Positions 8,913 through 63,135 of a stretch of 64,000 bases of DNA are shown in pieces. Source of the stretch: an uncultured Odoribacter sp. (lineage in GTDB: Bacteria > Bacteroidota > Bacteroidia > Bacteroidales > Marinifilaceae). Position 1 is the stretch's first letter. Each line of letters begins with the position of its first letter. The position numbers were made by a program, and so were the translations under genes. Where the stretch lies: contig CAZMOG010000001.1 in NCBI GenBank assembly GCA_964567845.1, positions 34,540 to 98,539 on the forward strand, in the 5' to 3' direction. The notes beneath the pieces are model-generated. The model worked only from the letters and a program-made list of their open reading frames with translations. It did no database searches and was not told the origin of the DNA.

Positions 8913-11900
8913 ATGCTGAATAGAATAATAAAATTCGCTCTGAACAACAGATTGGTTGTTATTGCAATATCGGTACTGCTATTGGGAATCGGCACATATA
9001 CAGCCTTCAACATGGAGGTCGATGTATTTCCGGACCTGAACGCCCCAAGAGTTGCCGTTATGACGGAAGCCCGAGGAATGGCACCGGAAGAGGTTGAACG
9101 TTTGGTAACATTCCCCATAGAGACCGCAGTTAACGGAGCCACCAATGTTCGTCGCGTTCGCTCATCATCGACTACCGGATTCTCGATTGTTTGGGTTGAA
9201 TTTGACTGGGGCACCGATATTTATCGCGCCCGACAGATAGTATCTGAGAAACTTTCATTAGTAAGCGAAGAGTTGCCCGACTACATTGGTAAACCTGTAA
9301 TGGGTCCCCAATCATCTATTTTGGGCGAGGTTATGATTATCGGACTTACCTCGGATTCTACATCGCTTATGGATCTGCGAACCTATGCCGATTGGACCAT
9401 ACGTCCACAACTCCTGGCAACAGGTGGCGTGGCACAGGTTGCCGTACTGGGTGGAGATGTTAAGGAGTACCAAATCCTGCTTCGTCCCGAGCTTATGAAA
9501 CACCACAACGTTACTCTCGATGCCGTAATGGCAGCAGTTGATGGAATGAACACCAACTCTTCGGGAGGAACCCTATATGAATATGGCAACGAGTACTTAA
9601 TACGTGGAGAGGTCTTGACTACAAATATTGAGGAGATGGGCAAGAATCCAATCATTGCCGAGGGAGGTAACGTGGTACTATTAGAGCAGGTTGCCAACAT
9701 TACCGTGGGAGGCGAAAGGCCGCAAACCGGCTTGGCATCGAACCGTGGCAAGGCCGCTGTACTATTGACCGTAACCAAACAACCAAACACAGGTACAATT
9801 GCGCTTACCGACCAGATTTTAGAGCGTTTGGATAAAATTAAAGGAACACTTCCTGCCGACATTAAAATCGACACCGACATTTTCCGTCAATCATACTTTA
9901 TTCAAAACTCAATTGACAATATTCAAAAAGCTCTCATTGAAGGTGGAATATTTGTAGTCATTGTTCTGTTCATATTCCTAATGAATGGCAGAACCACAAT
10001 TATTTCGCTCATTACAATTCCTTTGTCATTACTCATAACTATCCTTGTTATGAAGGCAATGGGAATGACAATCAACACAATGAGCATTGGAGGAATGGCC
10101 ATTGCCATTGGCTCGCTTGTCGATGACGCAATTGTCGATGTTGAGAATGTATATAAACGCCTGCGCGAAAACCGCCTCAAAAGCGCCAATGAGTACAAAA
10201 GCGTTCTGACCGTTGTTTACGAAGCATCGAAAGAGGTGCGCTTGCCAATTCTAAACTCAACATTCATCATTGTTGCCAGCTTTGTTCCGCTATTCTTCCT
10301 ATCAGGAATGGAGGGAAGAATGTTGGAGCCTCTTGGCATAGCATTTATTGTTTCGCTATTTGCATCAACATGCGTAGCACTGACCCTGACACCTGTTCTA
10401 TGTAGTTACCTTCTTGGAAAAGATGGTAGCGCAAAAGATAACAAAGAGCCTATCATTGCTGCAGCAATAAAGAGGGTATATATGAGAGCCCTTGATTATG
10501 TACTTAACCACAAAAAGGCAGTTTTATCAATCACTGCAACCCTTTTTGTGGGAGCATTGGTACTCTTCTTTACATTCGGACGCAACTTCCTGCCTCCATT
10601 TAACGAGGGCTCATTTACCATAAATGTAAGCACATTGCCGGGAATCTCACTTGAAGAGTCGGACAAAATTGGACGACACGCCGAGGAGCTATTGCTCACA
10701 ATTCCGGAGATTAAAACCGTTGCAAGAAAGACTGGAAGAGCCGAACTTGACGAACACGCTTTAGGAGTGAATATGTCTGAAATCGAAGCACCATTCGAGC
10801 TTAAAGATAGAAGCAAGGAGGAGGTAATGGCCGAAATCCGCGAAAAGATAAAGCTCCTGCCGGGTGTAAATCTTGAAATCGGACAGCCAATATCGCACCG
10901 TATTGATGCAATGCTATCGGGAACTCAGTCAAGCATAGCCATAAAACTATTCGGAAGCGATTTGACAACCATGTTTACCCTTGGTAACGAAATAAAACAG
11001 GCAATCGCGGGAGTTGAGGGAATTGGCGACCTGAATGTGGAGCAACAAATTGAGCGCCCGCAACTTGTAATCAAGCCCAAACGTGAAATGCTTGCCAAAT
11101 ATGGAATTACCCTATCGCAATTTGCCGATTACGTAAAGATTCTTCTTGCAGGCCAGAGTGTATCACAAGTTTACGAAGGTAACCGCTCATTCAATCTTAC
11201 GGTAAAAGTCGATAACCCCGACAGGGCAACTATTGAAGATATAAGAAACATTATTGTCGATGGAGCAAACGGAATAAAAGTTCCTTTTGAGCAGATAGCC
11301 ACAATCTACACCTCCGATGGACCGAACACCATCAATCGCGAAAATGTTGAGCGAAAGATTGTCATTTCTGCAAATGCCGTCGGACGCGATGTAGGCAGCG
11401 TGGTAAAGGACATTCAAGAGATTGTTGAGGAACAAATAACACTTCCCGAAGATTACCGCATTGAATATGGTGGACAATTCGAGAGCGAAAGAGCAGCATC
11501 GAAAATATTGTTAATCTCATCGATATTCTCGATATTGGTTATCTTCATGCTACTCTTCAACCAATTCAGAAACTTCACACAAGCCGGTCTGGTATTGCTT
11601 AACTTACCATTGGCCTTGATAGGAGGAGTTTTTGCTATATGGTTTACCGACAAGGTTATTAGTATTCCGGCAATTATCGGTTTTATATCACTATTTGGTA
11701 TTGCAACTCGAAACGGAATGTTGCTCATTGAACGCTTCAACGAATTACAAAATGAAGGAGTATCGATCCTTAAAGCAGTAAAAATGGGTTGCGCCGACCG
11801 ATTGGCACCAATCCTTATGACTGCCTTGACATCGGCACTTGGATTGCTCCCTCTTGCCCTTGGAGGCGATTTGCCGGGAAATGAAATTCAGAGCCCAATG

Positions 11901-13203: not shown

Positions 13204-13218
13204 ACAGAACAAACAGAG

Positions 13219-13255
13219 GTAGCCGGGACAAAGGAAATAATTTTGTTCCGGTTAC
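13219..13255 (+). terminator. Hairpin after the efflux operon (candidate terminator)
   Basis: GTAGCCGGGACAAA (9-nt loop) TTTGTTCCGGTTAC forms a 14-bp stem including 2 G.U pairs, 16 nt after the stop. The trailing T-run is weak. Confidence 0.45.
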
Positions 13256-13300
13256 CACATTTCAATTATTTTCTCTCTTTTTCTTGTATTTCCGCAAATA

Positions 13301-14179
13301 TTGTATTATATTGCAAAGCGAACCTCTCAAATGCCTTGCGATATGAAAACAACTCCTTACGCATATTGCGCCAACAACCCAACCAACCTAATTGACCCTA
13401 ATGGGGAGAGGATCTTTGCAACCTCTATCGTCAGCAATAATTACAATTCTTTGTTTGCTACTTACGAATGGACATACGAGTATGGTGCATGGCAATTTAT
13501 TGACATATCAACATATGAACCTTACGGCAATAATGGATATACTAGTGTATTTATGAATGAACTTAAGTATGCTTTAGACAAAATAATGTCCCGTCCATTT
13601 GGATATTCATATATTAATGATATCGTAACATTAGAGGAAATCGTAGTAATTAATCATTCAAATTTAAATAATAGTAATTCCTATAAAGAGACTTCCGGAA
13701 TCTATATGCTTAATAATATTGCCTATTCTAATATAATAGGAGTTATTAATTGGTATAATCCTAATAGTATTAATGAACAAAATTTTAAGAATTTTGAAAT
13801 TAGTACAATAGAGGGATATCAAATAAATCCTACTACATCATTAATACATGAATTAGCACATTTCTATTATGACGCAATGGGAGGAGATATGAATGACATC
13901 TGGTTTACAATTGATGAAGTTGATAAATATACAAATACTGCACCCAAAAATATATACGTTTCTGAAATATATACTACTCATATAGAAAACATTGTAAGGA
14001 ATGAACAAGGGTTTCCGTTACGAGATCAATATTTGAACGATTGTCTTAATGTTTTCGGAGATATTGATAAGATTATAAATGTAAAAAACAAAACAAATAT
14101 ATTTTTTAGGGATGGGTATGGTCTTGATTTGATACCACAGAATATATTAAACACCAAAAAAGGATATAAATATGAATAG
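13301..14179 (+). CDS. Orphan Rhs/YD-type polymorphic-toxin C-terminal module with HExxH metallopeptidase-like motif
   Basis: The ORF opens at a TTG; candidate ATGs are at 13331 and 13343. Residues after the 13343 ATG read KTTPYAYCANNPTNLIDPNGE, the Rhs core-end signature. A variable domain follows with SLIHELAHFYYD (HExxH) and THIENIVRNEQG. There are no YD repeats upstream. The region is very AT-rich. Confidence 0.65.
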   Translation: MYYIAKRTSQMPCDMKTTPYAYCANNPTNLIDPNGERIFATSIVSNNYNSLFATYEWTYEYGAWQFIDISTYEPYGNNGYTSVFMNELKYALDKIMSRPFGYSYINDIVTLEEIVVINHSNLNNSNSYKETSGIYMLNNIAYSNIIGVINWYNPNSINEQNFKNFEISTIEGYQINPTTSLIHELAHFYYDAMGGDMNDIWFTIDEVDKYTNTAPKNIYVSEIYTTHIENIVRNEQGFPLRDQYLNDCLNVFGDIDKIINVKNKTNIFFRDGYGLDLIPQNILNTKKGYKYE

Positions 14180-15419
14180 AATATATTTAGTAATGATTAT
14201 GCTTTTGGTTAACATTGATTTTGTGTTAGCTCAGAAACATGCAACTCTATTTAGCTTATGCATTGATTGTAATAATTACAAATATTACGCTCTTAATTAT
14301 AATTTTAGAAAGGGATTTGATGTGAATTTTACAGATACACAACGTAAGGATCCCATTCATATCGAAAACGAACAAGCTATATGTAATTTTATTGATTCAT
14401 TAAAAATAGTCGATTTTTCAAATGATACCATATATATCTTTGAACAGGATAATCAATATTACATAGAGACAAAAAATATAAGTGTAGCAAGAGGAATAAC
14501 AATAGTTGATAATCCATATTCATACAAAGACACTCTTATTATAACTAATAAACATTATAATAATTTGCGCGTGTCGTGGATTCCTAAATATGTGTATGAT
14601 GCATGTACACAAGGAGACACTGAATTATTAGGACAAATCTCAACATTAAATGATATATCCACATCAAGAAAAGAAATGCGGTTTAGCCGAATTATAGTGA
14701 ATAATTATGCTGTAAAACAAATTGAAGGTTATCTTTTTCCCTTTGAGGCTATGATTCAAAGTAGCTGGGATCAATTACAGGAGATCAAAACAACTGCAAT
14801 TCAAGAGAATAGATTTTTTAAAAAATCACAATTTCCATGTGAAGTTAAAAATAGAGATATACGTTTATGTGTAGATGATTATCAATTTAAAAACCTAATA
14901 CGAAGGAATAAAGAGATATATTGTTGGTATTCTCTATATGTTTTTCCATTAATTAAATCATTGAACATAATTGATGAGTCAGAAGATACAGTAAACTTTA
15001 AAATGGTATATTCACCTTATGGAATATTTAAAAATCTTTGCATCGTAAAAACCAATTCCACAAATTTATATCTATTTGAAACAAGAGATAAAATTATATG
15101 GGATACCATAAATCCATCTTACATGGAATTTTATAACTACAATAGAATCATGGAAAGAAGTAAATTATATGGAATCTATATTCCTCCTTATCTAATCGGA
15201 GAGTCTGATATTATAACCAGTAAATTTGTTTTAAGGGATTGGCCAGAATATAACCACTTTGACAATAAATTCTATCTAAAAAATATATCAACAAACACCA
15301 GAAGGATGAAGAGATATGAGGAACTTAATATTTATTATCGAGCAGAGATTTTAGATTCAAAAATTATAAAATATGCCTTTAATTACTCTATTTCACTGCC
15401 TAAATACAAACATAAGTAA
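14172..15419 (+). CDS. Secreted protein of unknown function, candidate cognate immunity/partner of the toxin module
   Basis: Overlaps the toxin ORF by 8 nt (ATG at 14172, toxin stop at 14177..14179). It has a signal-peptide-like N-terminus (MNRIYLVMIMLLVNIDFVLAQ) and weak internal duplication. Composition is AT-rich like the toxin ORF. Confidence 0.5.
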   Translation: MNRIYLVMIMLLVNIDFVLAQKHATLFSLCIDCNNYKYYALNYNFRKGFDVNFTDTQRKDPIHIENEQAICNFIDSLKIVDFSNDTIYIFEQDNQYYIETKNISVARGITIVDNPYSYKDTLIITNKHYNNLRVSWIPKYVYDACTQGDTELLGQISTLNDISTSRKEMRFSRIIVNNYAVKQIEGYLFPFEAMIQSSWDQLQEIKTTAIQENRFFKKSQFPCEVKNRDIRLCVDDYQFKNLIRRNKEIYCWYSLYVFPLIKSLNIIDESEDTVNFKMVYSPYGIFKNLCIVKTNSTNLYLFETRDKIIWDTINPSYMEFYNYNRIMERSKLYGIYIPPYLIGESDIITSKFVLRDWPEYNHFDNKFYLKNISTNTRRMKRYEELNIYYRAEILDSKIIKYAFNYSISLPKYKHK

Positions 15420-15430
15420 TAAAATTCAAC

Positions 15431-15477
15431 AGGCTGGCTATACAGATGGATATAGAGAACCTCCGTATAGCCTACCT
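15431..15477. terminator. Hairpin between convergent genes (possible bidirectional terminator)
   Basis: AGGCTGGCTATAC ... GTATAGCCTACCT forms a 13-bp stem with a 2-nt internal mismatch and a 21-nt loop, between the stops at 15419 (+) and 15478 (-). Confidence 0.35.
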
Positions 15478-19063: not shown

Positions 19064-19492
19064 ATGGCTGAAGATAAGCAACTTTTGTTGGACAAGCGCT
19101 ATTTAAGAATGGCAAAAATTTGGGGCGAAAATTCCTATTGTATGCGTCGTCAGGTTGGAGCACTGCTTGTTAAAGACAATTCGATTATCTCTGACGGATA
19201 CAATGGAACTCCATCGGGATTTGAGAATATCTGCGAGGATAACGAGGGCAAAACAAAAGCGTATGTTCTTCACGCAGAAGCAAATGCCATAACAAAGATT
19301 GCAAAATCAAATAATAATAGTAACGGAGCAACTATATATATCACAACCTCTCCCTGTATAGAGTGTGCAAAACTCATTATACAGGCAGGTATCAAACGGG
19401 TGGTATTTAGCGAAATGTATCGATGCGCAGACGGAATTGATCTGCTGAGGAGAGCAGGAATCTCAGTTGAACATATTGAGAATATTGAATAG
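19064..19492 (+). CDS. dCMP deaminase family (ComEB-like) zinc deaminase
   Basis: Has the HAEANAI and PCIECAKLI zinc-binding motifs. The ATG at 19064 was chosen over the overlapping extension at 19025. Confidence 0.85.
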   Translation: MAEDKQLLLDKRYLRMAKIWGENSYCMRRQVGALLVKDNSIISDGYNGTPSGFENICEDNEGKTKAYVLHAEANAITKIAKSNNNSNGATIYITTSPCIECAKLIIQAGIKRVVFSEMYRCADGIDLLRRAGISVEHIENIE

Positions 19493-19499
19493 AAAAACA

Positions 19500-21119
19500 A
19501 TGAGCTACAAGAATAGTAAATTTACAATCATAATGCCACTTATAATCGTGGCATCGTTTTTGGTGGGAATGTATGCAAACAACCACTTCTATCTTAAACG
19601 AAATCTGATAGGTTCAAATATTCAACAAAACATTGCAACCAATAAGATTGGTGCAGTTATGAATATGATCAGCACATCGTATGTCGATTCGGTGAATGTC
19701 GACTCTTTGGAGGAGAAAGCTATTGATTATCTGATAAAAGAGCTAGATCCACACACAGATTATCTTACAGCAAAGGAGATGGAGAAGGCCAACGAAGAGT
19801 TGGTTGGAAATTTCGGAGGCGTAGGAGTACAATTTTATTCGTTCGAAGATACGATTGTTGTTGTAAACGTCATTAAGAATGGCCCATCGGAAAAGGCAGG
19901 CATTCTTGCCGGTGACAGAATTATCAAGGTTGGAGATTCACTCATTGCCGGAGCGGACCACAAGTGCAGCAATGACAAGATTATGAAATTAATGCGTGGA
20001 GAGATAGATACTCCTGTAGATTTAACTATTTTCAGACGCTCAATAAACGACACCCTTGTTGCACATGTGACACGAGGCTCCATTCCTGTAAGCAGTGTGG
20101 CAGTTTCATATATGATCAATGACACTCTTGGATTTATTAAGGTTGATTACTTTGGTATGCAAACCTATAACGAATTTGTTACCGGAGTTGAGGGATTGAA
20201 GAGTATGGGAATGAAACACCTGATTGTAGATATGCGAGGAAACAGCGGAGGTGTTATGTCAATAGCTCTTAGAATGGTTAACGAATTCCTTCCTGCCGAT
20301 AGACTTATTCTTTACACTCAGGGAAATCACGTTCCCCGTTCTGATTACAGATCAAATGGCAAGGGAATATATCAAGAATTACCAGTAACAGTCCTTATTG
20401 ATGAGGGAAGTGCTTCGGCAGCAGAGATATTTGCAGGAGCTCTGCAGGATAATGACCGTGCTAAAATTATCGGCCGCCGCTCATTTGGAAAGGGATTGGT
20501 ACAAGAGCAAAGGGTCATGTCTGATGGTTCTGCTTTGCGATTAACCATTGCACGTTACTATATCCCATCGGGCCGCAGTATTCAAAAGCCATATAAACTG
20601 GGCGAGGATGGCAAAATGGACTACTACATGGAAGTTATGAACCGTTTGGAGCATGGAGAATTCTATCAGGCTGACAGCGTAAAGTTCGATGAATCACAAA
20701 AGTTTGAAACAATCGGAGGCAGAACTGTTTATGGCGGAGGAGGAATTATGCCCGACATTTTCGTTCCTGCCGACACTACCAACTACACAAACTATCTTTA
20801 TGAATTAGTTTCCAAGCAATTGATATATAGCTATACCTTCATCTTCATGGATCAACATCGTTCATACATGAAAGAGAATATCAAAGATTGGAAGGAGTTA
20901 CAAAAGTATTTAAAACAGTTCGATTTGGTATCGAATGTTGTTACCTACGCCTCTAAGAATGGTGTTAAGGTTAACAAAAAAGAGCTTCGTGAATCACGCA
21001 ATATTATTCGCATAATGACTGAAGCCCATATTGCCCGACACATGTTTGATAATGTCGGATTCTACCCCATTTACGACGAGATTGACTCCACGCTACAACA
21101 AGCTATAAAGCTATTGTAA
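19500..21119 (+). CDS. S41 family C-terminal processing peptidase (paralog 1)
   Basis: Has a PDZ-like segment (GPSEKAGILAGDRIIKVGD), DMRGNSGG, and the catalytic region SASAAEIFAGALQD...GKGLVQ. Start taken at the ATG at 19500 (MSYKNSKFT). Confidence 0.88.
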   Translation: MSYKNSKFTIIMPLIIVASFLVGMYANNHFYLKRNLIGSNIQQNIATNKIGAVMNMISTSYVDSVNVDSLEEKAIDYLIKELDPHTDYLTAKEMEKANEELVGNFGGVGVQFYSFEDTIVVVNVIKNGPSEKAGILAGDRIIKVGDSLIAGADHKCSNDKIMKLMRGEIDTPVDLTIFRRSINDTLVAHVTRGSIPVSSVAVSYMINDTLGFIKVDYFGMQTYNEFVTGVEGLKSMGMKHLIVDMRGNSGGVMSIALRMVNEFLPADRLILYTQGNHVPRSDYRSNGKGIYQELPVTVLIDEGSASAAEIFAGALQDNDRAKIIGRRSFGKGLVQEQRVMSDGSALRLTIARYYIPSGRSIQKPYKLGEDGKMDYYMEVMNRLEHGEFYQADSVKFDESQKFETIGGRTVYGGGGIMPDIFVPADTTNYTNYLYELVSKQLIYSYTFIFMDQHRSYMKENIKDWKELQKYLKQFDLVSNVVTYASKNGVKVNKKELRESRNIIRIMTEAHIARHMFDNVGFYPIYDEIDSTLQQAIKLL

Positions 21120-40563: not shown

Positions 40564-42108
40564 ATGGAGAGACGCATTAGAGTCAGATTTGCTCCAAGTC
40601 CAACCGGAGCACTTCACATGGGTGGAGTAAGAACCGCCCTATTCAACTATCTCTTTGCCAAAAAGCATGGCGGAGATTTTCTACTTAGAATCGAGGATAC
40701 CGACCAGACAAGATATGTACCCGGAGCCGAGGAATACATTCAAGAGGCTCTTAAATGGTGTGGACTGATTGTGGACGAGGGCGTAGGAGCCGGAGGCGAC
40801 TGCGGTCCTTACCGTCAAAGTGAGCGCAAGCCTCTGTACAAACAATACGCATTACAATTGGTTGAGTCGGGCAATGCATACTACTCATTCGACACAGCCG
40901 AGGAGTTGGCAGCAGAAAGAGCAGCTTGCGAGGCACGCAAAGAGACCTTCATCTATAATGCACAAAGCAGAACCCACCTGAAAAACTCATTAAACATGAG
41001 TGCCGAGGAGGTTGAAAAGGCATTGGCCGATGGAGTTCCCTACGTTATCCGCTTCAAAATGCCCGAGAACGAGGAGCTTGAGCTTCACGACCTGATTCGT
41101 GGAGAGGTTCACTTCCAGACCTCGCTTCTCGATGATAAAGTACTGTTCAAAGCCGACGGTATGCCGACATACCACCTTGCAAATGTTGTTGATGACCATC
41201 TTATGACCATATCGCACGTAATTCGTGGCGAGGAGTGGCTGCCATCAATGCCATTGCACGTGTTGTTGTACAAAGCTCTTGGCTGGGAGGAAACAATGCC
41301 ACAATTTGCCCACTTGCCACTTATCCTGAAGCCTGTTGGTAATGGAAAGTTGAGCAAACGCGATGGAAACAAAATGGGATTCCCTGTATTCCCAATGGCA
41401 TTTACCGACCCTGATACAGGCGAGGTTTGGCACGGCTACAAAGAGGATGGCTATTTCCCCGAGGCATTCGTAAATATGCTTGCACTGCTTGGATGGAACC
41501 CAGGCGATGGAGATGAGCGCGAAATCTTCACAATGGAGGAGCTAATCGAGATGTTCTCGTTAGAGCGCGTTAAAAAGGCCGGAGCACGCTTCGATCCCGA
41601 GAAGACAAAGTGGTTCAACCACAAATATCTTCAAATGAAAGACAATACCGAGATTGCTGAGATGATGCAGGAGTACCTGAAGGCCGACGGCATTGAGTTC
41701 GATAACGCACGCTTAGCTATGGTTTGTGGCCTTATGAAGGAGCGAGTAAACTTCGTTAAGGAGCTATACGATGAGTGTAAATTCTTCTTCGTTGCCCCAA
41801 CCGAGTATGTTGAGAAGGATGTCAAGAAGTTCTGGAAACCCGAGAGCACCGAGCTTATGAAAGAGTTCCACGCTCTTCTATCAGAGCAACCCGTACTTAG
41901 CAAAGAGACTTGCGATGCTACCATCAACGAGTGGCTTGCAGCCAAAGGACTTGGCTACGGAAAGTGCATGAACCCATTCCGTGTTGCCGTAATCGGCTAC
42001 GCAAAGGGGCCACACATGCTCGATGTTGCCGAGATTATCGGCAAAGAGGAGACCCTTGCACGCCTTCAGCGCGCCATTGACCTCTTCCCCACCATCATTG
42101 GCCAATAA
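40564..42108 (+). CDS. gltX: Glutamate--tRNA ligase
   Basis: Has RVRFAPSPTGALHMGGVRTALFNY (HIGH-type) and KLSKRDG (KMSKS-type). Confidence 0.95.
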   Translation: MERRIRVRFAPSPTGALHMGGVRTALFNYLFAKKHGGDFLLRIEDTDQTRYVPGAEEYIQEALKWCGLIVDEGVGAGGDCGPYRQSERKPLYKQYALQLVESGNAYYSFDTAEELAAERAACEARKETFIYNAQSRTHLKNSLNMSAEEVEKALADGVPYVIRFKMPENEELELHDLIRGEVHFQTSLLDDKVLFKADGMPTYHLANVVDDHLMTISHVIRGEEWLPSMPLHVLLYKALGWEETMPQFAHLPLILKPVGNGKLSKRDGNKMGFPVFPMAFTDPDTGEVWHGYKEDGYFPEAFVNMLALLGWNPGDGDEREIFTMEELIEMFSLERVKKAGARFDPEKTKWFNHKYLQMKDNTEIAEMMQEYLKADGIEFDNARLAMVCGLMKERVNFVKELYDECKFFFVAPTEYVEKDVKKFWKPESTELMKEFHALLSEQPVLSKETCDATINEWLAAKGLGYGKCMNPFRVAVIGYAKGPHMLDVAEIIGKEETLARLQRAIDLFPTIIGQ

Positions 42109-42853: not shown

Positions 42854-42960
42854 TGTTCGCAGTTGCATTTGACATAAACATTATAGATTTCCGTAAATAC
42901 TACGGGAAACCATATAATAATGCATATTACGAAATCAAAAATATACTTCGTAGATTTTGA
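42853..42960 (+). pseudogene. vapD: Truncated vapD (virulence-associated protein D, Cas2-like endoribonuclease) remnant, 35 codons
   Basis: MFAVAFDINIIDFRKYYGKPYNNAYYEIKNILRRF* closely matches my recollection of VapD N-termini (MYAxAFD...YG.PYN.AY.....L...GF). Full-length VapD is about 90-95 aa, and here a stop follows codon 35. Confidence 0.6.
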
Positions 42961-43025
42961 TACATAATCTCAATTTAAAGTTTTGTAGATACAGTAAAGA
43001 TAGTAATAAGTCAAAGAGACTCAAA

Positions 43026-44378
43026 ATGGCAAATAAAATAATAGATTATCAAGAAATTAAAATTAGAGACTTTTCTGATTTGGTTAAAGAACCTCAATAT
43101 GAATTGTATTTCAACAATGGTGATAAAGAACGACAAGAAAATGGAACCCTACGAGTTCTATCACTCTTCTCGGGATGCGGAGGTATGGATATTGGTCTAG
43201 AAGGAGGTTTTATTTGCCATAAGCATTCTGTAACCAACCCAAGTTGGATACACCATAGAATCAATGATGACTGGATTCTATTAAATCGTAATATATTCCG
43301 AACGGTCTTTGCATGCGACATCTTAGAGGAAGCACGCCTTACCTGGTTACGCTATATGTCTAGATACAATGTTAATCCCGATATTTATCACCTATCTAGC
43401 ATTGTAGACCTTGTAAAACTACACAAAGAAGGAGGTAATATATTCCCCACAAACATAGATATAGTTACAGGAGGATTCCCATGTCAAGATTTCAGCGTCG
43501 CAGGAAAGCGCAGGGGGTTTGATTCCCCTATTCTACACAATGGAGAAAAGACAAACACAGATTCTCCATCAGAAGAAAACCGGGGTAAACTATACATGTG
43601 GATGAAACAAGTAATAGACATCGTACAACCCAAAATGTTTATTGCTGAAAATGTAAAAGGACTTGTTAGTCTTGGAGATGTAAAAAAAATTATTCAAAAT
43701 GATTTTTCCTCTGCAAATGGAAATGATTACATTGTACTGGAACCTAAAATTTTACACGCTGCAAACTACGGAGTTCCTGAAAAAAGAGAACGCATTATTT
43801 TCATTGGAATTAAACGCTCTGCTCTCCATTCGAAGGCCATTGAGGCACTAGAACAAGAACAAGTTCCTATGGACTATAACCCCTACCCCGAACCCACGCA
43901 CAATTATAATGTCAATAACATGAACCTCCATAACCCTGTAAGTTGTAGAAATATTTTCAAGGGGCTTCCAGAACCCATAGAATCTATTGATTTAGCACAA
44001 CAAGTATATTCTTGCGCTAAGTTTTTAAGTAATGGTAGTCAGGGACAAACCGAAATTGATATTGATGGATTAGCTCCAACTATTCGCTCAGAACACCATG
44101 GGAATATTGAATTTAGGAGACTATCATCTGAACATGGGGGAAAAATAATAGAGGAACTATCCAAAGGAATGATCGAAAGGAGATTAACTCCCAGAGAATG
44201 TGCACTCATTCAAACATTCCCTCCCGACTATCCATTTGTTTTTCACAGATCAAATTCAAAACGATATGCCGTAAGTCCTTCCAGTGCATACAAAGTAATA
44301 GGCAATGCAGTACCCCCAATATTAGCATATAACATTGCAAGAAGGATACAAGATGTATGGCCATTATATTTCCAATAA
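43026..44378 (+). CDS. DNA (cytosine-5)-methyltransferase
   Basis: Has motif I LFSGCGGMDIGL, motif IV GGFPCQDFSVAGKR, motif VI ENVKGL, motif VIII-like GVPEKRERIIFIG, motif IX RRLTPRECALIQTFPPDY and motif X GNAVPP. ATG taken at 43026. Confidence 0.9.
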   Translation: MANKIIDYQEIKIRDFSDLVKEPQYELYFNNGDKERQENGTLRVLSLFSGCGGMDIGLEGGFICHKHSVTNPSWIHHRINDDWILLNRNIFRTVFACDILEEARLTWLRYMSRYNVNPDIYHLSSIVDLVKLHKEGGNIFPTNIDIVTGGFPCQDFSVAGKRRGFDSPILHNGEKTNTDSPSEENRGKLYMWMKQVIDIVQPKMFIAENVKGLVSLGDVKKIIQNDFSSANGNDYIVLEPKILHAANYGVPEKRERIIFIGIKRSALHSKAIEALEQEQVPMDYNPYPEPTHNYNVNNMNLHNPVSCRNIFKGLPEPIESIDLAQQVYSCAKFLSNGSQGQTEIDIDGLAPTIRSEHHGNIEFRRLSSEHGGKIIEELSKGMIERRLTPRECALIQTFPPDYPFVFHRSNSKRYAVSPSSAYKVIGNAVPPILAYNIARRIQDVWPLYFQ

Positions 44379-44379
44379 A

Positions 44380-45498
44380 ATGAATAGAGAAAGTAAGATT
44401 ATAGCTATAAGGAAGCAAGATATTGCTCTTGCGCATGAAGCATTTGTTGAACTAATGAGTAATACAGAAGCCATTCTTAATATTGCAGCTCGTAAAGACC
44501 CTATGAAATATAAAGAATTAACAGCTTCATCATTAGAGTTATGCGCTGTAGAAAAAATAAAAATAGCGTGCACAAATTCTCCATTTAATGCTAACGAGGT
44601 AAAACTTATTTCTGGACAGAAATTTCCAGACATTGTTGCAGAAAAATATTATGGGATAGAAATAAAATCAACAAAAAAAGATTGTTGGACATCCACAGGA
44701 AGCAGTATTGTTGAAACAACACGAATAGAAAACGTTGAAGACATTTATATGCTGTTTGGTAAACTCGGAGGGGATATTCCACAATTCAAATGTCGTCCTT
44801 ACCAAGATGTTCTGTATGATATTGCTGTAACTCACTCACCAAGATACCTTATAAATATGGAGTTAGATAAGGAAGATACTATATTTTCAAAAATGGGAAC
44901 AACCTATGATGACTTCAGAACTTCCTCAGACTCCATATCATTAGCAAGGCATTATTACAAACAACGAGCCAAGCAACAAAACCGTTTAGAAATGCCATGG
45001 TGGATAACTTCTGATAATCTCGAGAAGGGGCATTCATTTAATATCAAGTTATGGAATTCACTCACTCCACTAGAAAAAAGGGAATTACAGACAAAATGTA
45101 TGATTCTTTTTCCAGAAGCTCTCAATCCTGCAAGAAGCAACACCAAATATAACAACACCACCCTTTGGCTATGTTCATACAATCAGATTGTAAATCCTAA
45201 CATCCGAGATTTGTATTCAGCGGGTGGTAAAATAACACATGTCAATTACAAAAGGCTAAAACAACCAGTAGCACAGGTCTTTAACATAATAGTGGATTAT
45301 TCTGATGACATTAAAGCAATGCTTCATCGCCCTTCTGAAGAGCTATTAATGATGATCAGAGACTATAATCCTATACTTTTAAACAACAATGACATGTACG
45401 AAGAATGGCTCAATATATGTTCTACATTTGCACAAAAATATAACATACCACTTAGAGCATGGATTGAAAACAAACCCCACTTTTTGTTTTCAAAGTAA
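44380..45498 (+). CDS. Putative type II restriction endonuclease (PD-(D/E)xK) cognate to the C5 methyltransferase
   Basis: The ATG is 2 nt after the methyltransferase stop. It has a candidate catalytic motif, FPDIVAEKYYGIEIKSTKK (PD...ExK), preceded by the acidic helix LELCAVEK. I recognise no other family. Confidence 0.55.
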   Translation: MNRESKIIAIRKQDIALAHEAFVELMSNTEAILNIAARKDPMKYKELTASSLELCAVEKIKIACTNSPFNANEVKLISGQKFPDIVAEKYYGIEIKSTKKDCWTSTGSSIVETTRIENVEDIYMLFGKLGGDIPQFKCRPYQDVLYDIAVTHSPRYLINMELDKEDTIFSKMGTTYDDFRTSSDSISLARHYYKQRAKQQNRLEMPWWITSDNLEKGHSFNIKLWNSLTPLEKRELQTKCMILFPEALNPARSNTKYNNTTLWLCSYNQIVNPNIRDLYSAGGKITHVNYKRLKQPVAQVFNIIVDYSDDIKAMLHRPSEELLMMIRDYNPILLNNNDMYEEWLNICSTFAQKYNIPLRAWIENKPHFLFSK

Positions 45499-55086: not shown

Positions 55087-55174
55087 ATAATTATTAACCA
55101 ATTTTATTCTATTTTACTTCTCTAATTGAGAAATATAGACTATTTTCGCATTGTTGGAAATTACGTATAAACAT

Positions 55175-56824
55175 ATGAGAAAATTGAATAAAACCATTGC
55201 TTTAGTTGCAATATTCCTTATTTCTGTAACAACATTCACAAATGCACAAAATAAGGCCAACGATCAGAATTTCAGAGTTACCAAAGCTCTAAATACCCAA
55301 ATTTCGCTACTACGCGAAGTTAGTCGTTTGTACGTTGACACCATCAATCCCGATGAGCTTGTAAAAACCGGAATTGATGCAATGTTGGCAAGTTTGGATC
55401 CATACACAGTTTTTTATCCGGAAACAAATATGGACGAGGTCAAACTTATGACCAAAGGAGAGTATGGCGGAATTGGTGCTGTTATTGGAATGAATAAGGC
55501 ACGCCAGGTAATTATCCGTGAACCATATCGAGGAACCGCGTCATATAAGGCAAAACTTCTTCCCGGCGACATTATTCTTTCAATCAATGGCCAGGATATG
55601 ACCGGTAAAACAACTGTCGATGCAACAAATATTCTACGCGGACCGGCCGGCGAAGAGCTAAAATTGACAATCAAACGAGGTGAAGATAAGCCTTTCGAGG
55701 TAAAGATGATTCGCGAAAAGATTCAATTGCCAAACATTCCATATTACGGAATCATTAGAGATACTGTCGGCTATATCTATCTAAGTAGCTTTACAGAAAC
55801 CTCGGCTAAAGATGTAAGAAATGCTCTGCTTGACCTAAAGAACAAAGGAGCCAAAACAATGATTCTTGACCTTAGAAATAATGGAGGAGGCCTTATGGAT
55901 CAAGCTGTCGAGATTGTCAGTATGTTTGTTCCAAAGGGATCTCCCGTGGTTAGCGTAAAGGGAAGAATTTCACAAATAAATCGCGAACTTAAAACAACAC
56001 AAAACCCTATTCTGCCGGATATGCCACTGGCTATATTGATAAATAGCGGAACTGCATCTGCTTCGGAAATTGTATCGGGAGCACTTCAGGATATGGATAG
56101 AGCGATATTGGTAGGAACAAGATCTCTTGGAAAGGGTTTGGTGCAAAATGTGCGTCAACTACCCTACAACACCCAGCTTAAAATTACCACTGCGAAATAC
56201 TATATTCCAAGCGGACGATGTGTTCAAGCTATCGATTATTCACATAAAGACGCAAACGGTAATCCACAACCACTACCGGACTCACTTAGAAAAGAGTTTA
56301 AAACTGCCGCAGGACGCGCAGTATTCGATGGAGCCGGAATTGAACCTGATATTAAAATTCAGGACTCTGCATATAAATTATTGACACAAGAGTTAGTTAT
56401 AAACGACTACATATTCGACTTTGTAAATAATTATGCCCTTACAAATCCCGCACCTTTGAATGTAAATGATTTTACTATTCCTGAAGGCATATACGATCAA
56501 TTTACCGATTATGTCCTTAAACAAGATTTCAAATACATTACCAAAGGGTCTAACATCGTTGATGGCATGACCAAAGCCCTTGACGGAGAAGATTACCCGG
56601 AGCAGGTCAAAGAGCTGTTAAATCAGCTAAAAGAAGCTGTAAAACCAAATTTAGAGCAAGACATGAAGCGCTACAAAGACGAAATCATGGAGGCTCTTAT
56701 AGACCAGCTTGTAACAAGATACTATGACAATGAAGGATATATTGAGCACACAGTAAAGAACCGAGACAAGTACATTGATATTGCACTAAATCCTGAAAAC
56801 TGGGAAATCCTAAAGAATATGTAA
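55175..56824 (+). CDS. S41 family C-terminal processing peptidase (paralog 2)
   Basis: Has a signal peptide from the ATG at 55175, a PDZ segment (KAKLLPGDIILSINGQDM), DLRNNGGG, and SASASEIVSGALQD...GKGLVQ. Confidence 0.88.
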   Translation: MRKLNKTIALVAIFLISVTTFTNAQNKANDQNFRVTKALNTQISLLREVSRLYVDTINPDELVKTGIDAMLASLDPYTVFYPETNMDEVKLMTKGEYGGIGAVIGMNKARQVIIREPYRGTASYKAKLLPGDIILSINGQDMTGKTTVDATNILRGPAGEELKLTIKRGEDKPFEVKMIREKIQLPNIPYYGIIRDTVGYIYLSSFTETSAKDVRNALLDLKNKGAKTMILDLRNNGGGLMDQAVEIVSMFVPKGSPVVSVKGRISQINRELKTTQNPILPDMPLAILINSGTASASEIVSGALQDMDRAILVGTRSLGKGLVQNVRQLPYNTQLKITTAKYYIPSGRCVQAIDYSHKDANGNPQPLPDSLRKEFKTAAGRAVFDGAGIEPDIKIQDSAYKLLTQELVINDYIFDFVNNYALTNPAPLNVNDFTIPEGIYDQFTDYVLKQDFKYITKGSNIVDGMTKALDGEDYPEQVKELLNQLKEAVKPNLEQDMKRYKDEIMEALIDQLVTRYYDNEGYIEHTVKNRDKYIDIALNPENWEILKNM

Positions 56825-56825
56825 T

Positions 56826-58634
56826 CTACTCGTCAGGGTGAAAATAGTTATACACGATAGCAGCTCGTTTAGCACCTAAACAGGCTGCTATCTGTTTTAT
56901 ATCTGCCAACTTTATGCGTTCAACACTGCCAAATGTCTGAAGCAAAGCGCGCTCAGCAGCATCTCCAATTCCCTTTATATGCCTTAACTCGCTATCTATC
57001 TGAGATTTACTCCTTAAAGATCTATGAAAAGTAATTCCGAATCTGTGTGCCTCATCGCGAATATGCATCAAAACTCTTAATGTTTCAGATTTCTTGGAAA
57101 GAACCCAAGGCTCACTGTCTCCTGGAAAATATATCTCCTCTAAACGCTCAGCCAAACCCAATATTGCAATTTTGCCCCTTAAATTTAATTCAGCAAGAGC
57201 ATCCAAAGCGGCTCCTAATTGCCCCTTACCTCCATCAATAACTATCAAATCCGGAAGAGGCAATCCCTCCTCTAAAACACGAGAATATCTTCGATATACA
57301 ATCTCGCGCATTGAGGCATAATCATTAGCTCCAACAACACTCTTTACATGAAATTTTCTATAATCGCGTTTCGATGGTTTACCATTGACAAATACAACAC
57401 AAGCAGCAACAGGATTTGTACCTTGAATATTCGAGTTATCAAAACACTCTATTCTTCGAGGTTCAACATTCAACTTAAGTTCACTCTTCATCTGAAACAT
57501 AAGCTGATTTACAGTATCATTAGAATCACGTCGAACACTCCTTTGTCTATCTCTATCAGCTTTAAATTGCTTAGCATTTCGCTCCGACAACTCCAATAAA
57601 TGGTGTTTTTCTCCGATTTGTGGAATAGTATAAACAACTTTATCTATTTGAATATCAGGTAAAAACGGTACAATTATCTCGCGAGCGGAACTCTGAACCA
57701 AAGAGCGAATCTCATAAATAACATATGATAATAAAGACTCTTTATCCTCGTCTAATTTCTGCTCAACTTCCACTGTATGTACCTTATTTACAGCACCATG
57801 CTCTACTCCTAAATAGTTTACGTATATATATTTTTCCCCCTCTATAAAACTAAATACATCGATACTTGCCTGAGTTGTCCTAACAATTGTTGACTTGGAT
57901 CTATACTCTTTTAGTAGGTTAATTGCAATCATTGTTTCGTTAGCCTTTTCAAACTGAAAAATTGATGCATAGTGCAATTCTTGATTTGATAGATATGAAA
58001 TTACCTCAGAGAAATTTCCTTTAAGAATATTTCTAATCTGAGCAATGTAACCATCATATTCACTCTGTGAAATACCGGAGATACATGGTGCCTGACAGTT
58101 ATGAATATGATACTCTAAACAGGGTTTAAATTTCAATGATTGAATTGAAGCCTGCGACAACACCAAATTACAAGTACGCAACTTGTACAAAGAGCGTATC
58201 AGTTTCATTAAAACATTAGCAAACCTTACAGATGTATATGGCCCATAATACTCTGCCTCTGATCTGTTAAAATGTCGAGTAATTTCAACTCGCGGAAAAG
58301 ATTCTTTTCTTATTGCAATCCAGGGATAAGTTTTGTCATCTTTTAAAAGAATGTTGTACTTAGGCTTATGTTGCTTTATTAAATTATTCTCTAATAAAAG
58401 TGCATCCTGCTCAGAGTTTACAACTGTATAATTTAAATCAGCAACTCGTCTAACAAGATTCAATGTTTTTGAACTTTGATTGCTTTTACTTAAATATGAT
58501 GAAACTCTATTACGTAAATTCTTTGCCTTACCAATGTAAATTATATTTCCGTCGGAATCCAAATAGATATAGACTCCCGGATCGGTAGGAAGATTTCTAA
58601 CCTTCTCTCTTAAATTTTCATCGTATAAAGCCAT
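56826..58634 (-). CDS. uvrC: Excinuclease ABC subunit C
   Basis: Has a GIY-YIG N-terminus (GVYIYLDSDGNIIYIGKAKNLRNRV), a UvrBC-interaction region, an endonuclease V-like domain and a C-terminal HhH. Confidence 0.95.
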   Translation of the reverse strand: MALYDENLREKVRNLPTDPGVYIYLDSDGNIIYIGKAKNLRNRVSSYLSKSNQSSKTLNLVRRVADLNYTVVNSEQDALLLENNLIKQHKPKYNILLKDDKTYPWIAIRKESFPRVEITRHFNRSEAEYYGPYTSVRFANVLMKLIRSLYKLRTCNLVLSQASIQSLKFKPCLEYHIHNCQAPCISGISQSEYDGYIAQIRNILKGNFSEVISYLSNQELHYASIFQFEKANETMIAINLLKEYRSKSTIVRTTQASIDVFSFIEGEKYIYVNYLGVEHGAVNKVHTVEVEQKLDEDKESLLSYVIYEIRSLVQSSAREIIVPFLPDIQIDKVVYTIPQIGEKHHLLELSERNAKQFKADRDRQRSVRRDSNDTVNQLMFQMKSELKLNVEPRRIECFDNSNIQGTNPVAACVVFVNGKPSKRDYRKFHVKSVVGANDYASMREIVYRRYSRVLEEGLPLPDLIVIDGGKGQLGAALDALAELNLRGKIAILGLAERLEEIYFPGDSEPWVLSKKSETLRVLMHIRDEAHRFGITFHRSLRSKSQIDSELRHIKGIGDAAERALLQTFGSVERIKLADIKQIAACLGAKRAAIVYNYFHPDE

Positions 58635-58674
58635 AAAATTGCGTATTCTGAGAATTTAATATTTACAAAGTTCA

Positions 58675-60324
58675 TTAACTCCGGTCATGAATATTGAAAA
58701 ATGAAAAAGTCTCAAAATTAAACAAACCCTGCTCTCCCAACTTAATTTTTGGAATAACTATCAACGACAAAAAAGAGAGAGTCATAAATGGGTCGAGTAA
58801 ATTAGAACCAAACTTCTTCACCTTTCGCTTTAATGAAGTGAAAATATTATTTACATACAAACCTCCACGGTCAGACATAATACCACCTATGGGTAATGGA
58901 AGTATTGCAGTACTTCCATTAGAACTACATGCCAAACCTCCCTTATACTCTATAACCTTGTTTATTGCTTTCAGTAAGTCTACATCCGATGTTCCTACAG
59001 CCAAAATATTATGCGAATCATGTGCCACTGTAGAAGCAATAGCCCCGCTCTTGAAACCGAAACCTTTTACATAAGCTATTTGAGGTTTGGAATTATCGTT
59101 ATAGCGATTTACATAAACTATTTTCAATAAATCCTGCTCCAAATCAGATTCCAAATTATCACATGGTTCAGTAAGATTAAAATTACACTCTTCTGTCACT
59201 AACTGATCAAAAACAATTTGAATAGCTTTGTGAGTTCCTTGCGTCATTGGCTTTCTTAGTTCTGATAGCAATAAATGTCCTCGCTTAAACTTGTTCAGAG
59301 TAATATTCACGATACTCTCATCGCTATTATCCAAGTGTGAAACATCCTTGTCAAAAACACATTTTCCTGCAACGTATGTCTGTATTGTCTCGAACTTTTT
59401 TAAATCCTTCACAACTTGAAAATCTGCAGCATCGGCAACTCGCAACAATCCAACCGAAAGATTATAGTGAAGTATCGGATTAACAGATGCAGCTTTAATA
59501 ACATTGAAAAGATCATACCCCTCTTTAACTGCCTTGCAAACCATTTTATCTATATGGCCAAGTTTAATCAATGTATCAGGATGAGAATCATCAGTACAGA
59601 ACATAACTGAATTCGGATACAATTCCAACAATTGCTTCAAATCATCGAAATTATTTACTGCACTTCCATATCTAATTTGAATCTTCATTCCGGCATTAAT
59701 CTTCTCTATAGCCTCGTCTAAAACCACACATTCATGATCCGTGGTGACGCCTGCAGCAACATATTTTTTTAGATTCTCTCCACTACACAACGGAGCATGA
59801 CCATCTATCCTTAAACCATACCTCTTTGCTGCTTGCAATTTCAACTGCATCTCCTTATCTCCATTTATAACAGCAAACAGATCCATTACCTCTGAAAGGG
59901 CAACAAAATTTCCCGACTTTGCCAAAATATCAATATCAGCACTACTTATCGTAGCTCCGGAACCATCAAAACTTGTAGCAGGAACACAAGATGGTATAGT
60001 AAAAAACATTTTACATAGAGCATTTGAACTGTTCTTTACCATTGACAAAACTCCTGTTACTCCTGTCACATTTGCTATCTCATGAGGATCTGTTACAATA
60101 GCAACTGTTCCACGTGGAACAATTAACTTTGAAAATTCCTGCGGCGATAACATTGAACTCTCAATATGAACATGAGAATCGACAAAACCAGGAATAATAT
60201 AGTTTTCGTAATGCTTATTTTCAACTCGCTCTATCGAGACAATTATACCATTTTCAATCTTGATTTTGGCAGGATATATTGACCTGCTATGAACATCTAC
60301 TAAGTTACCAACTACCTGTTTCAT
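58675..60324 (-). CDS. ade: Adenine deaminase
   Basis: Has amidohydrolase motifs PGFVDSHVHIESS, RIDGHAP and TTDHE. ATG taken at 60324 (MKQVVGNLVDV); the longer ORF would start inside the palindrome. Confidence 0.88.
   Translation of the reverse strand: MKQVVGNLVDVHSRSIYPAKIKIENGIIVSIERVENKHYENYIIPGFVDSHVHIESSMLSPQEFSKLIVPRGTVAIVTDPHEIANVTGVTGVLSMVKNSSNALCKMFFTIPSCVPATSFDGSGATISSADIDILAKSGNFVALSEVMDLFAVINGDKEMQLKLQAAKRYGLRIDGHAPLCSGENLKKYVAAGVTTDHECVVLDEAIEKINAGMKIQIRYGSAVNNFDDLKQLLELYPNSVMFCTDDSHPDTLIKLGHIDKMVCKAVKEGYDLFNVIKAASVNPILHYNLSVGLLRVADAADFQVVKDLKKFETIQTYVAGKCVFDKDVSHLDNSDESIVNITLNKFKRGHLLLSELRKPMTQGTHKAIQIVFDQLVTEECNFNLTEPCDNLESDLEQDLLKIVYVNRYNDNSKPQIAYVKGFGFKSGAIASTVAHDSHNILAVGTSDVDLLKAINKVIEYKGGLACSSNGSTAILPLPIGGIMSDRGGLYVNNIFTSLKRKVKKFGSNLLDPFMTLSFLSLIVIPKIKLGEQGLFNFETFSFFNIHDRS
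60106..60121. repeat. 16-bp perfect palindrome TGTTCCACGTGGAACA, copy 1 (inside ade coding sequence, about +204 from the ATG)
   Basis: Read directly from the sequence. It encodes VPRGT of ade and is identical to copy 2. Confidence 0.95.
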
Positions 60325-60334
60325 ATCGAAAATT

Positions 60335-60350
60335 TGTTCCACGTGGAACA
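60335..60350. repeat. 16-bp perfect palindrome TGTTCCACGTGGAACA, copy 2 (fills the mnmG-ade intergenic spacer)
   Basis: Read directly from the sequence. It starts 1 nt after the mnmG stop codon and ends 10 nt before the ade ATG. It is a candidate operator or short hairpin. Confidence 0.95.
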
Positions 60351-62234: not shown

Positions 62235-62668
62235 ACACCAACCAAATTTAGCATCTGAAGGCATTTAGCCTCCTGCTCACGCATTATTATTGAATCCTCG
62301 TCCGATTTATCCTTAAAACCTATTAAATGTAAAATTCCATGACAAAATACCCTGTTAAACTCGTCTTCAAAACTTGTTCCAAAAAGTTCTGAATTCGATT
62401 TTACCGTATCTATACTGATATAAATATCGCCGTTTAAAATATCGCGTCGGCAATAATCGAAAGTAATTATATCGGTATAGTAATCATGATTCAGAAACTC
62501 ATTGTTTACTTTGAGTATCTTCTCATCATTACAATAAATGAAAGAGAGTTTACCGACCCTCTTTCCATAATGTTCAGCTATAATATCAACCCATTTATCA
62601 AATCTTTGAAATGAAAAAAAAATGGGAGAATCAATCTCTTCAAACTCTATATACAGTGCTCTCTTCAT
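62231..62668 (-). CDS. ybeY: rRNA maturation RNase YbeY
   Basis: Has the zinc motif HGILHLIGFKD (HxxxHxxxxxH/D). Confidence 0.9.
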   Translation of the reverse strand: MKRALYIEFEEIDSPIFFSFQRFDKWVDIIAEHYGKRVGKLSFIYCNDEKILKVNNEFLNHDYYTDIITFDYCRRDILNGDIYISIDTVKSNSELFGTSFEDEFNRVFCHGILHLIGFKDKSDEDSIIMREQEAKCLQMLNLVGV

Positions 62669-63066: not shown

Positions 63067-63135
63067 TTCTATAGTTATAAATTGTGTTTATTTAACTCAT
63101 ATACGAAGTTACGAAAAAAAAAGTAAAAAACAAAG

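Follow-up and report, generated by a model that had tools for sequence, protein, structure and literature searches.

How does the tip of a polymorphic toxin come to stand alone among housekeeping genes, and what might keep it there? The question is raised by a 2.2-kb AT-rich islet in a stretch of 64,000 nucleotides (nt) from contig CAZMOG010000001.1 of an uncultured Odoribacter sp. (GenBank assembly GCA_964567845.1), which we call the window throughout. In the slot between czcC, a gene of the OEP family, and a convergent MMPL gene, the islet carries two open reading frames (ORFs) that overlap by 8 nt. ORF1 joins a start codon to the extreme end of an Rhs core and a toxin tip with the motifs of a zinc peptidase, and ORF2 codes for a protein with an export signal. 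This layout had been described in the sequence-only reading that first drew attention to the pair, and the coordinates as well as the hydrophobic region (h-region) of the ORF2 signal peptide are confirmed here. In our judgement the islet is probably what decay has left of an rhs polymorphic-toxin locus, which is turning into an orphan immunity gene.

Rhs ancestry of ORF1

ORF1 offers three start codons in one frame, TTG 13301, ATG 13331 and ATG 13343, ahead of its stop at 14179. The exact 278-residue product is present at NCBI (P0001; P and L numbers denote the proteins and loci compared in this study). After ATG 13343 the sequence reads KTTPYAYCANNPTNLIDPNGE / MKTTPYAYCANNPTNLIDPNGE. The closing motif of an Rhs shell, which the sequence-only reading had placed right behind this ATG, is borne out by a profile and by nucleotide homology. 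The N-terminal 19 residues match positions 57-75 of the 76 positions of TIGR03696 (19.1 bits against a cut-off of 32.5, E = 0.0014, a partial-length match), and nt 13353-13413 are 85-88% identical to the equivalent segment of the rhs-derived genes in L021 and L025. Because of this nucleotide homology to rhs genes, the core tail is genuine. In addition, a profile of longer family members matches YenC2, TccC2, RHS2 and teneurin of the PDB at their core ends. The remainder of the core is missing, including its autoproteolytic residues; ORF1 has no match to the RHS repeat PF05593 and opens only three codons before the core tail.

The rest of ORF1 matches Pfam PF14891 with 38.5 bits (gathering cut-off 25, E = 2e-9), residues 83-244 of the 292-residue form covering profile positions 12-176 of 176. 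Peptidase_M91 is the family of NleD, HopH1 and XopG. It is equivalent to Tox-HopH1 of the polymorphic-toxin catalogue, which is defined by HExxH together with a [DE]N motif and has been listed with RHS repeats and in Bacteroidetes (PMC3482391). Both the HExxH and the Glu-containing helix pointed out earlier are present, as HELAH and THIEN. Across 11 aligned homologs H169, E170 and H173 do not vary, and E215 and N216 are conserved in at least 90%. By its domain match and motifs, ORF1 is thus a predicted Peptidase_M91/Tox-HopH1 zinc-peptidase tip, which would be expected to act as a zinc-dependent protease. Its AlphaFold model is poor (mean predicted local distance difference test score, pLDDT, 48.8), and a Foldseek search of the PDB with this model returned non-significant matches only, the best being botulinum light chains (E = 0.7). 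A metagenome scan for close relatives of ORF1 came back empty.

The end of czcC lies 140 nt before the ORF1 start codon, and the last 80 nt of this interval are also homologous to rhs. Positions 13266-13351 share 87% identity over 86 nt with the leader of the L021 gene, a body-less rhs, and positions 13298-13349 share 83% over 52 nt with L024, where the match takes in the rhs start codon and the region just upstream of it. The sequence shared with L024 is …TATATTGCAAAGCGAACC…AAATGCYTTGC..ATGAAA, in which ATG 13343 aligns with the L024 start codon. Since leader and ATG correspond by homology to the 5' region and start of rhs, ORF1 has the appearance of an rhs gene that lost its body by in-frame deletion, and not of a displaced promoterless cassette. 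To judge from its conservation, the leader would contain the promoter. How the cassette is expressed and delivered had appeared unexplained before; delivery genes were indeed not found in the window, but the pair does not stand without an rhs 5' region. A sigma-70 promoter scan gave fewer matches than shuffled sequences, this consensus being inapplicable to Bacteroidota, and a metagenome scan with the 27-nt leader core was empty.

Full-length genes with the same kind of tip exist. L024, a 57-kb metagenome contig, shows the parent architecture, that of the Sec-dependent RHS/YD toxins with DUF6443. Its complete Rhs protein of 2416 residues starts with a Sec signal peptide (…TTLLA/QK, Gln at +1) and a long N-terminal region, followed by DUF6443, RHS repeats, the core (…DYYPFG…GRWLHRDP…SPYTYCANNPMNLVDPYGE) and a tip of the same M91 subfamily as ORF1 that ends in GYKYK. 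A gene of the ORF2 family (481 residues, P0025) overlaps the Rhs stop. The window gene lacks the signal peptide, N-terminal region, DUF6443 and RHS repeats of L024. L020, a contig of 989 bp, contains an Rhs core end, a tip that is 94.7% identical to ORF1 at the nucleotide level and the start of an ORF2-type partner gene; this copy of the tip bears a frameshift and a 3' deletion. In L025 an Rhs body carries the P0003 tip and is accompanied by the partner P0021. Homologs of the toxin domain, which the sequence-only reading had expected at Rhs C-termini, are therefore found there in three loci (L024, L020 and L025). One Rhs body type (…LDSLETVMDYYPFG…CANNPTNLIDPDGE) was seen with three tips, A in L020, B in L025 and C in L021, indicating that tip exchange at the core tail, or handle, has happened in this gene pool.

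Genes with a shortened body link these proteins to ORF1. In L021, which comes from another genome and another locus, the start codon is joined to the last 85 core codons (M-ETVMDYYPFG…). The window gene has the same structure minus exactly 249 nt (83 codons) of core, leaving M-K-T-/TPYAYC. A junction identical to that of the window, ATGAAAACAA/CTCC, is combined with another toxin/partner pair in both L019 and L023. The latter is a metagenome-assembled genome (MAG) of the Marinifilaceae from the rectum of a water deer, in which the junction lies directly behind another partner gene and the module is further decayed. This array shows that the body-less form was transferred across Bacteroidales families and then decayed further. 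On the minus strand of L023 (2045-2823), the 3' part of a partner gene runs into the junction 'C-A-MKTTPYAYCANNPTNLIDP' and about 60 residues of a P0003-type toxin, in frame with the C-terminal end of a P0021-type partner.

Some of these findings would also be expected of a silent reservoir, which had been proposed side by side with orphan immunity. ORF1 and ORF2 would then be a donor cassette that recombines through the handle into a full-length rhs gene and switches the deployed toxin. The handle is 83-88% identical at the nucleotide level to the handles of other rhs genes and modules; the recurrence of the junction with another pair and the three tips on one body type point the same way, as does an intact ORF1 with a ratio of nonsynonymous to synonymous substitution rates (dN/dS) of 0.17 against L020. 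However, there is no rhs body within 64 kb, the sole match to the handle-coding pattern in the sister MAG described below is another body-less module, and 57 nt at about 85% identity are a poor substrate for homologous recombination. Moreover, in the sister lineage it is the toxin that was dropped and the partner that survives, contrary to what would be expected of a toxin reservoir. We regard a reservoir function, which would be compatible with decay of the locus, as unlikely, and orphan immunity in the making as the better supported of the two proposals.

A different type of short Rhs-related gene was encountered in L009-L012 (e.g. L010, 8001-12877). Three small genes each encode a signal peptide, an Rhs core tail only (ARWLQVDPKAE.YY.TSPYAYC.NNP...DPNG) and a differing toxin domain (M91, a weak CCL2-lectin-like match and Toxin-JAB1), and each is followed by a gene for a small exported protein. 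They are located within a cluster resembling a type II secretion system or type IV pilus (T2SSE ATPase, N_methyl pilin, secretin). These secreted toxins with a mini-Rhs tail may represent a distinct delivery arrangement.

An exported partner that outlives the toxin

Wherever the context is sufficient (window, L021, L024 and L025), a member of the ORF2 family lies immediately 3' of the M91 Rhs tip. The toxin of L021 is 35% identical to ORF1 (E = 3e-38) and is accompanied by two tandem partner copies that are 24% identical to ORF2 (E = 8e-22); L025 and L019 share the partner P0021. The closest non-orthologous relative of ORF2, P0020, resides on a contig too short for its context to be read. Diverged toxins are thus matched by diverged partners, and the pair co-diverges across the modules of the window, L021, L024 and L025/L019. 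The earlier suggestion that the overlapping ORFs form a toxin-immunity pair gains from this, since in four independent, diverged modules the partner is placed where an immunity gene would be, and it co-varies with the toxin. The two partners of L021 (4602-6065 and 6332-7759) are identical in their first approx. 165 residues and about 45% identical in the rest. They look like a mosaic duplication, which suggests diversification of the C-terminal repeat.

ORF2 itself has no match in Pfam, NCBIfam or PADLOC, and its family profile finds no match in the PDB. A full HMMER pass over 1.84 billion proteins yielded only 8 real representatives of the family. The protein appears to be composed of two tandem alpha/beta repeats, each opening with IDSLxxIDxxxDT, and the succession of secondary structure elements H-E-E-E-E-H-H-E-E is seen twice in its low-confidence AlphaFold model (pLDDT 49.7). 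With hhalign, one sub-segment only of the internal repeat was recovered (85% probability). In all 10 partner proteins examined, an N-terminal h-region is succeeded by a small residue and Gln, in agreement with the 'Q-rule' for signal peptidase I (SPI) of Bacteroidetes (PMC5837995). Among them are the unrelated partners of approx. 205 residues that accompany distant M91 toxins; beyond an NDTxY motif that they have in common, their homology to the halves of ORF2 does not reach significance. By sequence prediction, partners of this toxin family are exported as a rule.

Two other classifications were considered for the islet and rejected. It does not qualify as an anti-phage defence system, as PADLOC found no match. 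A type II toxin-antitoxin module, with both products in the cytoplasm, is contradicted by the predicted Sec/SPI signal of the partner, which is conserved throughout the family.

The fate of the partner was followed in a sister lineage comprising at least 10 contigs (including NCBI GCA_015061245.1, a Bacteroidales MAG) with the gene order leuS–czcCBA–MMPL–polyprenyl synthase–mutS. In the same slot between czcC and MMPL these genomes encode a partner of 416 residues that is 91% identical to ORF2. Of the toxin gene, two remnants corresponding to window positions 13427-13493 and 14124-14179 are left; leader, handle and most of the peptidase are gone. Between the lineages the partner has a dN of 0.040 and a dS of 0.241, i.e. 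a dN/dS of 0.16, in the absence of a toxin, indicating that it is kept by purifying selection. The flanking genes czcC, czcA, MMPL and polyprenyl synthase differ with a dS of 1.7-2.7. The common ancestor of the islet is thus far younger than that of the surrounding chromosomes, i.e. than the split of the hosts. At either islet edge, identity climbs from about 77% to 90-98% over fewer than 60 nt. Such a young islet would be produced either by a second acquisition at this site or by gene conversion with rhs-linked copies as donors. In one sister contig (L002, approx. 9985-10003, equivalent to window 14160-14174), an ATATAA unit 5' of the partner ATG is present in four copies compared to one in the window. 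As the rhs leader is deleted there, this expansion may bear on expression of the partner.

Persistence without the toxin could also be taken as a sign that ORF2 never was an immunity protein. It might instead be an unrelated exported adhesin, a binding protein or a chaperone of the Rhs tip that inherited its position. ORF2 is clearly able to stand alone, and without a recognisable domain, a solved homolog or a confident fold its function is deduced from its position only. Nevertheless, the family is found directly behind and overlapping M91 Rhs tips in four modules, its divergence tracks that of the toxin, and its duplication in tandem with a mosaic C-terminal half, like the truncated copies seen in arrays, is what immunity genes typically show. 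A toxin chaperone, in turn, would not remain at a dN/dS of 0.16 after loss of the toxin. We give this interpretation hardly any credence.

Decay of an rhs locus towards immunity probably proceeded as follows. The ancestor would have been a Sec-exported full-length Rhs protein with a C-terminal M91/Tox-HopH1 tip and a co-transcribed, translationally coupled immunity gene. An in-frame deletion would then have taken the signal peptide, the N-terminal domains and the entire YD-repeat shell (about 2,100 codons) and joined the native start codon to the last approx. 17 core codons. What would remain is the rhs 5' leader, an intact tip that presumably cannot be delivered, and an exported immunity protein, with no means of toxin export. 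ORF2 would be the working part of this arrangement. It is predicted to be exported by the Sec pathway and cleaved by SPI before Gln21, and as a periplasmic protein it would bind the M91 tips that competitors with a complete Rhs fire, and so neutralise them. Its export would make sense because a Sec-exported Rhs needs an immunity protein in the compartment that it passes through or attacks, and it suggests an envelope target for the peptidase. ORF1 might be tolerated as a cytoplasmic protein away from this presumed target. It is probably kept for now as the bearer of the promoter and, through the 8-nt overlap, of translational coupling for ORF2. The next step would be loss of the tip, as has already occurred in the sister lineage. 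The domain identities, the homology to full-length Rhs and to the rhs leader, the export signals, the deletion of the toxin with retention of the partner, the purifying selection and the islet's younger age, on which this scheme is built, were all computed.

Several points weigh against the scheme. ORF1 is intact, possesses all catalytic residues and is constrained relative to L020, which could mean that it is still used. A full-length rhs gene sharing the handle may lie outside the 64 kb and would make ORF1 a recombination donor. In the leader, no Bacteroidetes-type promoter consensus was confidently recognised, and no convincing TAnnTTTG box or -7 box was found by eye. Nor is the leader indispensable for partner expression, because the sister lineage deleted it and kept the partner. 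Support from protein folds is absent, as the models of both proteins are poor (pLDDT 49-50). Finally, toxicity, neutralisation, localisation and transcription are computational predictions.

If ORF1 is still used, it might act as a stand-alone effector that is transcribed from the retained rhs promoter and leaves the cell independently of a signal peptide, be it carried by a secretion system or released through lysis, with ORF2 providing self-immunity. The intact frame, native start codon and conserved leader are in line with this, as is the purifying selection measured against L020, and relatives do possess short M91 proteins without a shell that are seemingly built for secretion (P0004-P0009). 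All of the latter, however, carry their own Sec signal peptides, which ORF1 does not (maximum 12-residue hydropathy 0.31, no h-region). Pfam scans of most ORFs in the window showed no gene for a secretion system, VgrG/PAAR or an adaptor, ORF1 has no Pfam match to a C-terminal domain of the type IX secretion system (T9SS), and it was the toxin, not the partner, that the sister lineage lost. Use as a free effector is therefore very unlikely, and we retain a decaying rhs locus with a functional immunity gene as our explanation.

The islet within its chromosomal surroundings

The features of the islet and its edges are compiled in Table 1.

Table 1. Positions of the features in and next to the islet (window coordinates)
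Feature	Position	Strand	Basis or content
Left-edge hairpin, 3' of the czcC (OEP) stop	13218..13256	+	inverted repeat GGTAGCCGGGACAAA/TTTGTTCCGGTTACC, read from sequence
Leader: rhs 5' region (putative promoter and 5' untranslated region)	13261..13342	+	homology to L021 and L024 leaders
ORF1, 278 aa	13343..14179	+	start codon, last approx. 17 Rhs-core codons, predicted Peptidase_M91/Tox-HopH1 domain
Rhs core tail ('handle') TPYAYCANNPTNLIDPNGE	13352..13408	+	partial match to TIGR03696, nucleotide homology to rhs
HELAH, predicted zinc-binding/catalytic motif	13847..13861	+	codons 169-173 of the ATG-13343 form
HIEN, [DE]N motif of Tox-HopH1, next helix	13979..13990	+	within THIEN
ORF2, 415 aa, exported partner, predicted cognate periplasmic immunity protein	14172..15419	+	position, pairing, export signal
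ORF2 Sec/SPI signal peptide, predicted cleavage VLA/Q	14172..14231	+	h-region hydropathy 2.69, then Ala-Gln 20/21
Right-edge imperfect hairpin, between the convergent ends of ORF2 and the MMPL gene	15431..15477		inverted repeat I20

The foreign look of the islet had been deduced from hand counts of G+C in single lines of 60 nt, namely 13/60 (13621..13680) and 15/60 (14821..14880) in the islet compared to 27/60 in gltX (41521..41580) and 34/60 in czcA (9421..9480). These counts are exact. Positions 13261-15450 contain 28.4% G+C versus 40.2% in the window, the lowest value among all stretches of 2190 nt in the 64 kb (mean 40.3%, standard deviation 3.3%), and the G+C content at third codon positions is 0.22-0.25 in the islet genes versus 0.39-0.50 in neighbouring genes. 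At the same time, positions 57000-64000 have only 32-37% G+C and a strongly negative GC skew, yet code for housekeeping proteins (uvrC, adenine deaminase, mnmG, ybeY). Low G+C alone is thus a weak marker of foreign DNA in this genome, and the stronger argument comes from dS.

The left-edge hairpin is also kept in the sister lineage. It is a core-genome element that delimits the islet on this side. It is not followed by a T-run and was not called by the terminator scan, in which no intrinsic terminator was called. At the right-edge position, where the imperfect hairpin marks the boundary of the islet, the sister lineage has a shorter, perfect one. A search for target-site duplications and terminal inverted repeats at the islet edges produced only short AT-rich chance matches.

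To assess the gene content of the window, most of its 56 ORFs with 130 or more residues were scanned against Pfam, and synteny was used for several others. Only housekeeping families and one DNA methylase were found, and neither an RHS repeat nor a component of T9SS or of a type VI secretion system (T6SS) nor a recombinase. The longest ORF has at most 1036 residues, so that there is no gene the size of an Rhs body in the 64 kb, and the Rhs-end motif occurs a single time in the six-frame translation. The absence of an Rhs core, of secretion-system genes and of a recombinase, asserted before by inspection, is upheld by these scans.

Two further observations concern the neighbourhood. At 42957-45498, another AT-rich pair of genes (35-37% G+C) combines a C-5 cytosine DNA methylase (PF00145, E = 1.6e-47) with an overlapping ORF of 387 residues without a Pfam match, probably a restriction-modification islet. 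In addition, the window contains two paralogous PDZ plus Peptidase_S41 (tail-specific protease) genes at 19467-21119 and 55151-56824.

Relation to known orphan modules and implications

Orphan rhs-CT/rhsI pairs are familiar from Salmonella Typhimurium (rhs-orphan), E. coli, Dickeya and Serratia. An example of an orphan Rhs has been described in Serratia (PMC10539506). Like these enterobacterial modules, the window pair is a 3' fragment of rhs that includes a short core-coding stretch, a complete toxin domain and the presumed cognate immunity gene, lacks shell and trafficking domains, and belongs to a system in which tips are exchanged at the conserved core end. The differences are threefold. 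Classical orphans are situated directly downstream of a main rhs gene, whereas the window pair is alone among housekeeping genes with no rhs in 64 kb. Classical orphans are devoid of a start codon and promoter, whereas ORF1 has kept homologs of the rhs start codon and 5' leader, hence its appearance as an internal deletion. And most rhsI products are cytoplasmic, whereas the partner described here is predicted to be exported.

With respect to its tip, ORF1 agrees with the Tox-HopH1 class (PMC3482391) in having both HExxH and [DE]N and in exceeding the cut-off of the Pfam model. NleD, HopH1 and XopG, in contrast, are effectors of type III secretion systems that work in the eukaryotic cytosol, while the context of the window is interbacterial. 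In the table of the 2012 polymorphic-toxin catalogue by Zhang et al. (PMC3482391) no immunity family is given for Tox-HopH1 ('-'); the subfamily in the window is consistently accompanied by an exported two-repeat partner. This family, which has not been annotated before, is a likely immunity partner of the M91/Tox-HopH1 tips of Rhs proteins and hints at an action in the envelope.

The presumed end point of the decay resembles acquired interbacterial defence (AID), which Ross et al. reportedly described for gut Bacteroidales in 2019. Common to both are an immunity gene that is conserved without a deliverable cognate toxin, a foreign composition and signs of horizontal exchange, and in the sister lineage the gene has become a true orphan. 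AID clusters, however, form arrays carried by mobile elements, in many cases next to a recombinase (rAID), and are directed against T6SS effectors. The window has a single gene in a fixed chromosomal slot that lacks a recombinase and terminal repeats and was apparently derived in place from a decayed Sec-type Rhs. Orphan immunity and AID genes of gut Bacteroidales have been reported (PMC12247911, PMC10470768).

The locus and its relatives provide a natural series in which a contact weapon decays into pure defence, from the full Rhs (L024) via 85 core codons (L021) and 17 core codons (window) to toxin remnants beside an intact immunity gene (sister lineage). Both this series and the assignment of the exported partner family agree with accepted views of polymorphic toxins and of orphan immunity, and overturn nothing. 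What sets the islet apart is its stand-alone position, the retained rhs start and leader, and the exported, unannotated partner family. In practical terms, its recognition should improve annotation of such islets in uncultured Bacteroidales and offers a toxin/immunity pair that can be tested.

A more far-reaching proposal, which we put forward only tentatively and would not expect to hold as a whole, is that the ORF2 family is the first immunity family for Tox-HopH1/M91 toxins and that the 'gutted' rhs gene, reduced to promoter, start codon and tip, is a recurrent transferable form. The same deletion junction with different tips, also in a Marinifilaceae genome, favours the latter part. If true, the obligatory export of ORF2 would mean that Rhs-borne M91 proteases kill by cleaving periplasmic or outer-membrane proteins and not a cytoplasmic target, and a gutted rhs gene would allow bacteria to keep the immunity expressed while the weapon is disarmed.

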